From a phage: a DNA stretch of 40,535 nucleotides. The stretch lies in assembly GCA_032185465.1 (NCBI GenBank), contig GCA_032185465.1_4549.1; one strand, written 5' to 3'. This document shows positions 11,682 through 12,616 of the stretch, one piece after another. The notes under the pieces were generated by a model, which was not told where the DNA came from, searched no databases, and was given only the letters and a program-made list of their open reading frames with translations. The position numbers and the translations under genes are program-made. The stretch's first letter is position 1, and every line of letters begins with the position of its first letter.

Positions 11682-12135
11682 CTCGGTCGGAAGTGACCAG
11701 TTCATTGGTAGACAGCCAGCGTTGCAAGTCGAAACTTGGACACGCCTTTGGTGCTACGTCATGATGTGCTTTGATTTCTGCCTGAGGATACAAGTCCTTC
11801 AGGTCAGCCAGCTTGTTGCGCAGGGAGTTCATCTGGGCCGGAGTGAAGTTAGCTTCAAACTTGCCCTTAGCGTCAATTCCACCTACAAGGCAGACGCCTA
11901 CAGACCGTGAGTTCCAGTCCTTAACGTGTGACCCTACGACATTGACCGGGCGTCCCTCTTCCACAGTGCCATCGCGCTTGATGATAAAGTGGTAGCCTAC
12001 GTCCAGCCAGCCTTGCTGCTTGTGCCACATACGGATGGTCTCTACCCCGATGTCCATCCCTGGCTTGGTAGCCGAACAGTGTACGAAGATAGCGTCGGTC
12101 CGGGACCGTGGATTGAACTGTACCTTACTTACCAT
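11677..12135 (-). CDS. N-acetylmuramoyl-L-alanine amidase (T7 lysozyme gp3.5-like)
   Basis: 152 aa; DAIFVHCSATKP, WLDVGYHFIIKRDGTVE, VGVCLVGGID, KGKFEANFTPAQM, APKACPSFDL, NELVTSDRG, colinear with T7 gp3.5. Confidence 0.95.
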   Translation of the reverse strand: MVSKVQFNPRSRTDAIFVHCSATKPGMDIGVETIRMWHKQQGWLDVGYHFIIKRDGTVEEGRPVNVVGSHVKDWNSRSVGVCLVGGIDAKGKFEANFTPAQMNSLRNKLADLKDLYPQAEIKAHHDVAPKACPSFDLQRWLSTNELVTSDRG

Positions 12136-12616
12136 TGTACACCACCAATTCTACGACAACCAGATTCAGGTGCTGGGTGAAGCGTTGTGCGTCCGTGGTG
12201 TGCATCTGGAGATGCTTATGGTTGAAGACGTGTGAGTTGCTAATCTTCACGTAAACTTCTTCAGGCTTTCCATGGACGATGAACGTCTGGCCTACACCAA
12301 TCTTGTCGATGGTCAGGACTTCACGCTTCAAAGTCACAGGCGGTACGCTCGAAGCTGGCAGGACTTGAGTGGTTTGGACACCAGTGAGTTTCTCTTCCGG
12401 CTTGATTTCCTCAAGTTTCCAATTAAGGACCCATGCTCCCCACATACCCTCAGGCTGAGTATTGCAGCCGTTAGACCCATGTTTGTATGCGCCTGGAGTC
12501 TGGCACTCAACTAGGGTCATTCTTGAATCTGGTACGGGGTCATTCTCACACTTGGTAACTATAGTCCCACTAGGCCAGCCATGCGCATCTACTAACAGTT
12601 TAAACTTCTTGCTCAT
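12125..12616 (-). CDS. hypothetical protein, 163 aa, inserted between endonuclease I and amidase
   Basis: ATG at 12616 overlaps the gp3 stop (TGATG) with AAGGAG 8 nt upstream; no T7 counterpart at this position and no recognised motif. Confidence 0.7.
   Translation of the reverse strand: MSKKFKLLVDAHGWPSGTIVTKCENDPVPDSRMTLVECQTPGAYKHGSNGCNTQPEGMWGAWVLNWKLEEIKPEEKLTGVQTTQVLPASSVPPVTLKREVLTIDKIGVGQTFIVHGKPEEVYVKISNSHVFNHKHLQMHTTDAQRFTQHLNLVVVELVVYNGK

Follow-up and report, generated by a model that had tools for sequence, protein, structure and literature searches.

Gene 3.2 of Kayfunaviruses combines a conserved C-terminal domain with an exchangeable N-terminal cassette

Gene 3.2 and its transcription unit

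The window analyzed here is a 40,535-nt stretch of phage DNA, in which every gene of the ORF map is located on the minus strand. Gene 3.2 lies between the genes for endonuclease I (gp3) and an amidase of the T7-lysozyme type (gp3.5). The features of the locus, in the direction of transcription, are as follows:

13814-13831, minus strand: phage-RNAP promoter copy CTAAACTATCACTGTAGG, 5' of gp2.5; member of a ten-copy repeat family, at the position of T7 phi2.5
12616-13068, minus strand: gp3, endonuclease I, upstream neighbor (Phage_endo_I, PF05367, E 8e-81)
12624-12629, minus strand: Shine-Dalgarno sequence AAGGAG, 7 nt 5' of the gene 3.2 ATG, read from the sequence
12614-12618, minus strand: TGATG overlap of the gp3 stop (TGA 12618-12616) and the gene 3.2 ATG, from sequence and ORF coordinates
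12125-12616, minus strand: gene 3.2 (gp3.2), 163 codons and TAA, two-domain protein, from the ORF listing and sequence (phrog_16385, E 3e-95)
12401-12616, minus strand: N-terminal module A, aa 1-72, exchangeable cassette, predicted SH3-like beta-barrel
12338-12400, minus strand: linker, aa 73-93, with the conserved Pro/Ser-rich junction VLPASSVPP (alignment A1); homology to B-type phages resumes inside it, at 12369
12128-12337, minus strand: conserved C-terminal domain (C-domain), aa 94-163, family core, with the motif G..F..Y...SNSHxFN....QMHTT...RF
12125-12135, minus strand: 11-nt overlap of the gp3.2 3' end and the amidase start, ATGGTAAGTAA, from ORF coordinates and sequence
11677-12135, minus strand: gp3.5, amidase, downstream neighbor (Amidase_2, PF01510, E 1e-16; phrog_822, E 1e-80)
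11663-11680, minus strand: variant promoter-like copy at the amidase gene end (repeat family D3), positional equivalent of T7 phi3.8

The start codon of gene 3.2 is located at 12616-12614 and the TAA stop codon at 12127-12125. An earlier note, made from the letters of this DNA, had described a well-formed 163-aa gene at these exact coordinates, leaving the strand unstated, and both the AAGGAG sequence and the overlap of the ATG with the gp3 stop codon were read in the sequence as it had reported. Its assignment of the two neighbors was borne out by the Pfam matches listed above. The same applies to its statement that the gene is inserted relative to T7, because gene 3 (10257-10706) abuts gene 3.5 (10706-11161) on the T7 map, with no gene between them. 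Since the start of gene 3.2 overlaps the gp3 stop and its 3' end overlaps the amidase start, the gene is translationally coupled on both sides.

The window contains a ten-copy repeat family, CCTATAGTGATAGTTTAG on the plus strand and CTAAACTATCACTATAGG on the minus strand, which has the initiation motif CACTATAGG in common with the T7 promoter. On this likeness we assign the repeat copies as phage-RNAP promoters. The copy nearest upstream of gp3.2 is the one at 13814-13831, just before gp2.5. Because one promoter copy is located there and another at 11663-11680, gp2.5, gp3, gp3.2, and gp3.5 form one class II unit, within which stops and starts overlap, and which corresponds to the interval from phi2.5 to phi3.8 in T7. 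By these signals, gene 3.2 belongs to the middle (class II) genes and is transcribed from a promoter of the phi2.5 type.

Several other features were observed in the window. A tRNA-Thr gene (anticodon CGU; 11535-11613, minus strand) was called by both ARAGORN and Rfam (36.7 bits vs a gathering score of 29) between the amidase and primase/helicase genes, just downstream of the variant promoter. In T7-group phages, tRNA genes are uncommon; equivalents of this one are annotated as "tRNA-OTHER" in HC12 and "tRNA-Pseudo" in IME278. In several other Kayfunaviruses, the same interval holds an ORF of 70-71 aa (gp3.7, Citrobacter SH phages), and IME278 has both the ORF and the tRNA. The 3' end of the primase/helicase gene (9820-11520) contains, in another frame, an ORF of 108 aa (9765-10091, minus strand). 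As this ORF matches phrog_5140 (unknown function) with E 1.4e-48, it probably represents a true overlapping gene of the kind of T7 gene 4.2. A 75-aa ORF (14074-14301, minus strand) is located between the genes for a gp1.7-like nucleotide kinase (14291-14761), the stop of which it overlaps, and a gp2-like RNAP inhibitor (13828-14064). This ORF had no PHROG match at E <= 1e-3 and is thus more of an orphan than gene 3.2.

An Ocr-like anti-restriction gene (21526-22032, minus strand; 168 aa; phrog_2568, E 6e-52) is flanked by 74-nt direct repeats at 21220-21293 and 22041-22114, which are 97% identical and 821 nt apart. These repeats may be duplicated early-promoter/leader regions or a trace left by a cassette. 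A tandem array (22554-22672) close to the early region and the presumed genome end holds ~7 copies of the 15-nt unit GACTGTAGGTTGTAG, reminiscent of the arrays beside the terminal repeats of T7-group phages.

The intergenic homing endonucleases of T7-group phages are of the HNH type (T7 genes 2.8, 3.8, and 7.7). The window has neither a gene 2.8-type HNH gene between gp2.5 (13068-13769) and gp3 nor a gene 3.8-type HNH gene after the amidase. Both slots that are prone to insertions in T7 are thus vacant in the window, and the gp3/gp3.5 junction is occupied instead. The product of gene 3.2 itself showed no HNH or GIY-YIG homing endonuclease motif in Pfam or PHROG searches.

The gp3.2 family and its distribution

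The 1.8-kb region around gene 3.2 shared 99.2% identity with Escherichia phage vB_EcoP_LNA5 and 98.6% with LM33_P1, and it matched 226 phage records, essentially from the genus Kayfunavirus (K1F-like Studiervirinae). Phages 6925 and vB_EcoP-22664BS1 have "hypothetical proteins" that match the gene 3.2 protein with 100% identity, and over the full length it was 87% identical to EcoDS1 gp3.2, 80% to K1F gp3.2, and 66% to gp3.01 of Citrobacter phage CR44b. Two PHROG families of "unknown function" were matched, phrog_16385 over aa 1-163 (E 3.2e-95) and phrog_15211 over aa 94-163 only (E 4.5e-39). The gene had been called unrecognised in the earlier note, and this did not hold: with two PHROG families and deposited proteins that are identical or annotated as gp3.2 or gp3.01, gene 3.2 is already catalogued, by homology, as a conserved hypothetical gene of Kayfunaviruses. 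The sequence profile, the synteny, and the C-terminal core motif all placed its product in the gp3.2 family, and it is almost certainly a real modular protein of this family.

The gp3.2 proteins of K1F, EcoDS1, and Cronobacter phage Dev2 and gp3.01 of CR44b belong to the same family and occupy the same slot; the window gene is a near-identical allele, from which nothing essential differs. The Dev2 protein (74 aa) and those of the SH phages consist of the C-domain only, whereas the window protein also has module A. Homologues were found in 221 phage records, always in the slot from gp3 to gp3.5, and this slot is kept even in distant Studiervirinae. The order gp3-gp3.2-gp3.5 was also found in SEA1f, IME278, PSTRCR_120, and a Logan contig. 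In the Providencia phage PSTRCR_120, a distant member of the Studiervirinae, the divergent gp3.2 homologue is followed by a hypothetical gene of 117 aa (1659-2012 of its region) and then by the endolysin gene. Because of this extra gene, the interval from gp3 to gp3.5 can be said to hold more than one accessory gene.

An exhaustive HMMER search with the family profile against 1.84 billion representative proteins returned 17 representatives (at 50% identity), all of them family members, with no fusion to a known domain; the whole family comprises ~255-270 clusters at 90% identity. Word-indexed searches seeded with distant members returned no new architectures with annotated domains. No bacterial or prophage copies were found in one genome per species of 185,579 bacterial and archaeal species. 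The gene and its modules were confined to ~40-kb lytic phage genomes. When five module profiles were compared with 638 T7 ORFs by hmmsearch, the best E values were 0.29-0.73, which is noise, and a counterpart of gp3.2 was undetected in T7 and in all other genera of Studiervirinae.

Neither single sequences nor profiles of gp3.2 matched any entry of Pfam, NCBIfam, PADLOC, or the PDB sequences; with Pfam, no family appeared at E <= 1 for the window protein or at E <= 10 for diverse members. The remark in the earlier note that the protein carries no assignable motif was thus confirmed in these libraries, which also gave no catalytic or known-family motif. A clear match to a core structural or replication protein had been named there as the outcome that would speak against a new function; none was found in Pfam, PHROGs, NCBIfam, or PDB. 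The general libraries likewise yielded no PADLOC, PDB-sequence, or informative PDB/BFVD fold match to counter-defence families (Ocr, ArdA, Acr, Tad, Acb, Gad, and similar) or to defence components. In the searchable literature, no functional account of gp3.2 was found beyond a table row that lists the protein without a function and gives a pI of 9.7 for a 75-aa form (PMC4925675). A description of gp3.2 in terms of domain cassettes was not found in this literature, the coverage of which is incomplete.

Constant C-domain and variable N-terminal modules

The family alignments divide gp3.2 into two parts. The C-domain of ~70 aa is nearly invariant and present in all 221 related phage records; its core motif, at aa 109-146 of the window protein, was invariant across alignments A1-A4. 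In most multi-domain forms the C-domain is preceded by the VLPASSVPP junction, and the sequence N-terminal to this junction is variable throughout the family. According to these alignments, the N-terminal 72-82 aa of gp3.2 are an exchangeable cassette, and the C-domain is the family core. BLAST classification of the N-modules in 209 family proteins gave the following classes:

Module A (window phage): 123 of 209 family proteins
Module F: 40 of 209
Module E: 18 of 209
Module B: 16 of 209
Modules D, G, H, and I: 1-2 each of 209
Module J: at least one further module
Tandem forms: A-B, A-F, E-B, F-B, and J-B
C-domain alone (74-75 aa): Dev2, SH phages, and many Salmonella Typhi phages

At least eight mutually unrelated N-modules thus occur singly, in tandem, or not at all. 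In profile-profile comparison, no module was significantly similar to another one or to the C-domain. The idea that all modules are diverged copies of one domain was unsupported, as the best all-against-all hhalign probability was 18.6% (B vs C, over 15 columns). Modules B and F were absent from 50,697 phage records outside this slot of ~40-kb Kayfunavirus-like genomes, and module A had no relatives outside the gp3.2 family among the 1.84 billion representative proteins. The module types were not partitioned by host genus.

The boundaries of the cassette are sharp at the nucleotide level. Compared with B-type phages (L001, L008), the window is ~95% identical from the gp2.5 start to 12614, in the gene 3.2 ATG; the identity is gone at 12613-12370 (aa 2-82) and is back at 12369, in the linker, from where it continues through the amidase gene end. 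Compared with C-only phages (L019, L021), the breakpoints lie at 12603 and 12316. Among sequenced isolates, a C-domain of ~74 aa on its own seems to be the most frequent form. The N-cassette is therefore dispensable, with the core function residing in the C-domain. In the comparison of presence and absence across related phages that the earlier note had proposed, the C-domain was found in 221 of 221 records, and the N-cassette varied in type or was missing. The suggestion that gene 3.2 is an accessory gene agrees with the evolutionary signature, that of an accessory or host-interaction gene, of its N-terminal half, which is hypervariable and cassette-like inside an operon conserved at ~95%, but not for the C-domain, which is a genus-wide core and not sporadic.

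Following the AlphaFold check proposed in the same note, AlphaFold2, run with a 30-sequence alignment, modelled aa 1-72 with good confidence as a five-stranded barrel, with block-mean pLDDT values of 82-91 except for the 41-60 loop. In the model of the full protein, the C-domain was left unfolded (pLDDT 30-47). Module A is therefore predicted, with good confidence, to be an SH3-like beta-barrel that is superimposable on SH3 domains and has hypervariable loops. Its likeness to SH3-like barrels (eukaryotic SH3 domains, the N-terminal barrel of restriction endonuclease Hpy99I, KOW, and Tudor-type domains) is a resemblance of fold only, with 4-17% identity and no sequence similarity, and in Pfam gp3.2 is not a member of the canonical SH3, SH3_3 to SH3_8, SH3b, or KOW families. 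The barrel also has a feature of its own, a long Gly-rich beta3-beta4 loop, HGSxGxNTQPxGMWGAW. A Foldseek search of BFVD returned only a gp3.2 family member, matched by sequence. We speculate that the low pLDDT of the C-domain, which was obtained for a monomer, might reflect an obligate oligomer or a domain that folds on a partner.

The two parts of gp3.2 also differ in their rate of evolution. The amino-acid identities to the window were:

gp2.5, gp3, and gp3.5: 77-99%
gp3.2 C-domain: 77-97%
Module A, where present: 58-65%

In its conservation, the C-domain is thus roughly on a par with gp2.5, gp3, and gp3.5. Its pN/pS ratio was 0.04-0.3 across 17 relatives (Nei-Gojobori), compared to 0.34-0.6, which is still below 1, for module A. 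Selection thus acts at the protein level along the whole reading frame. In the same pairs (window vs the distant A-type relatives L004-L007), pS reached 0.7-0.8 in module A and 0.40-0.45 in the C-domain. The higher pN/pS and deeper pS of module A indicate that the head of gp3.2 evolves faster and has alleles that predate the backbone. Across 124 distinct A sequences, the scaffold of module A was conserved (GWPxGTIVTKC, LVE, HG..G..QPxGMWGAW), and variation was concentrated at positions 9-12, 28-33, 43, 51, and 64-67, which are loops in the model. Conservation of the C-domain due to an overlapping nucleic-acid element was ruled out, because pS is up to 0.6 while pN is low, and Rfam gave no match. 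The GC3 of module A is 0.49, compared to 0.55-0.66 for the core genes, a dip that is too small over 72 codons to be interpreted as a sign of foreign origin.

With 221 syntenic homologues and purifying selection, the gene 3.2 ORF is, on comparative grounds, real and more than a product of chance. The probability that it is spurious or untranslated is practically negligible, given also its Shine-Dalgarno sequence and coupling and the strength of the selection on its frame.

Possible functions of gp3.2

We propose, tentatively, that gp3.2 may be a non-enzymatic binding or adaptor protein, the variable head of which would bind a strain-variable host target; this reading is possible, and we hold it with some doubt. 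The conserved C-domain would dock onto an invariant partner, which could be a class II phage protein from the coupled unit or a host protein that is strongly conserved. What gp3.2 binds through its N-terminal cassette would differ between strains; the most likely target would be a variable host factor, for example an immunity component. Cassettes would be swapped between phages by homologous recombination, with the 3' end of gp3 on one side and the linker and C-domain on the other as flanking homology. Module A has the signature of a binding module, because its variation sits in loops on a conserved scaffold. The modularity of the family with its sharp cassette boundaries, the different evolutionary rates of the two parts, the SH3-like fold of module A, the lack of matches to catalytic or known-family motifs in the libraries searched, and the confinement to lytic phages also speak for this reading. 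Counted against the adaptor reading are the C-only forms as the apparently commonest ones, the module types that do not track the host genus, an N-module pN/pS below 1, and the Ocr-like anti-restriction gene that is already present in the canonical early slot.

The main rival of the adaptor reading is that gp3.2 is an accessory subunit or regulator of the phage class II machinery. Here, the binding partner of the C-domain would be endonuclease I, the amidase-RNAP regulatory pair, SSB, or the replisome, and the N-modules would be dispensable add-ons for solubility, stability, or oligomerization, with no host target. The genus-wide C-domain, conserved like its operon neighbors, is consistent with such a role, as are the translational coupling of gene 3.2 to gp3 and gp3.5, the slot that is invariant even in distant Studiervirinae, and the frequency of C-only forms. 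However, T7 and all other Studiervirinae genera have no detectable counterpart, and at least eight unrelated N-modules, hypervariable loops, and exchange at precise boundaries are left unexplained. We regard this role as somewhat unlikely. It is improbable that gp3.2 is instead a small nucleic-acid-binding protein, with a basic C-domain that binds DNA or RNA in the manner of the SH3-like barrels of Sso7d, KOW, and integrase C-terminal domains and that modulates, for example, recombination intermediates or amidase translation. The C-domain is indeed rich in His, Lys, and Arg, with a pI of 9.2-10.1 in most members, in line with the published value for the 75-aa form; it is also beta-rich and encoded among DNA-binding proteins, and its low monomer pLDDT would fit an obligate oligomer. 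Yet the most distant C-domain, that of P0135, is neutral (pI 7.1), and the residues that never vary (Ser, Asn, His, Gln, and Thr) do not amount to a basic patch. Moreover, no nucleic-acid-binding family was matched, and the C-domain has no confident modelled fold.

The N-cassettes could also be neutral or selfish insertions, for example remnants of mobile elements in a permissive 5' site of a small conserved gene, with no function of their own. Their presence/absence polymorphism with sharp boundaries, the viability of C-only forms, and the GC3 of module A slightly below that of the core genes would agree with this origin. It is nevertheless highly improbable: the modules are in frame, their scaffold is kept across the distinct A sequences with pN/pS below 1 and a confident predicted fold, they are found nowhere else, and they carry no nuclease, integrase, or transposase signature in Pfam or PHROG.

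Two known architectures resemble that of gene 3.2. In the gene 0.3 slot of T7-group phages, T7 encodes Ocr and T3 a SAM hydrolase. Known counter-defence genes of this group are mostly early genes and not class II, which also speaks against the adaptor reading. Such alternative-gene slots, generalized in the concept of "accessory regions" by Silas et al. (bioRxiv 10.1101/2023.04.06.535777), share with gene 3.2 the alternation of unrelated sequences at a fixed position between conserved genes, a pattern that in characterized cases marks counter-defence functions. Unlike in these slots, the exchange in gene 3.2 takes place at the domain level inside one frame, and the exchanged part is always fused to the same C-domain. 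Gene 3.2 also differs from gene 0.3-type slots in being a class II and not an early gene, and a counter-defence role is suggested here by analogy. The second parallel is with podovirus tail fibres and tailspikes, in which a constant docking domain and a swappable specificity domain are recombined at a conserved junction. In gp3.2 the polarity is opposite, with the constant part C-terminal, and the protein is tiny (8 + 8 kDa), encoded outside the structural operon, and without homology to structural proteins.

The adaptor reading can be extended to a plug-and-play counter-defence adaptor, in which a fixed C-terminal docking or effector domain would carry interchangeable small beta-barrel heads of at least eight unrelated kinds, sometimes in tandem. 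Each head would neutralize or hijack a different strain-variable host factor, and the protein would be expressed together with the DNA-metabolism genes of K1F-like phages. In this specific form, the proposal is quite unlikely to be correct.

Phages in therapeutic and diagnostic use include Kayfunaviruses such as K1F, LM33_P1, CLB_P1, and the Salmonella Typhi phages, and gene 3.2 is among the few genus-specific and universally retained genes of Kayfunavirus without a known role. Alleles of gene 3.2 with module A, B, or F or with no cassette occur in operon backbones that are ~95% identical from gp2.5 to gp3.5, which provides a clean experimental handle. Because the backbones are so similar, allele swaps can directly test the effect of the head on strain-level host range or defence evasion. 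If the heads do set host range or defence evasion, the C-domain would represent a new small fold for docking or for an effector role, and the locus would be a compact library of host-factor binders.
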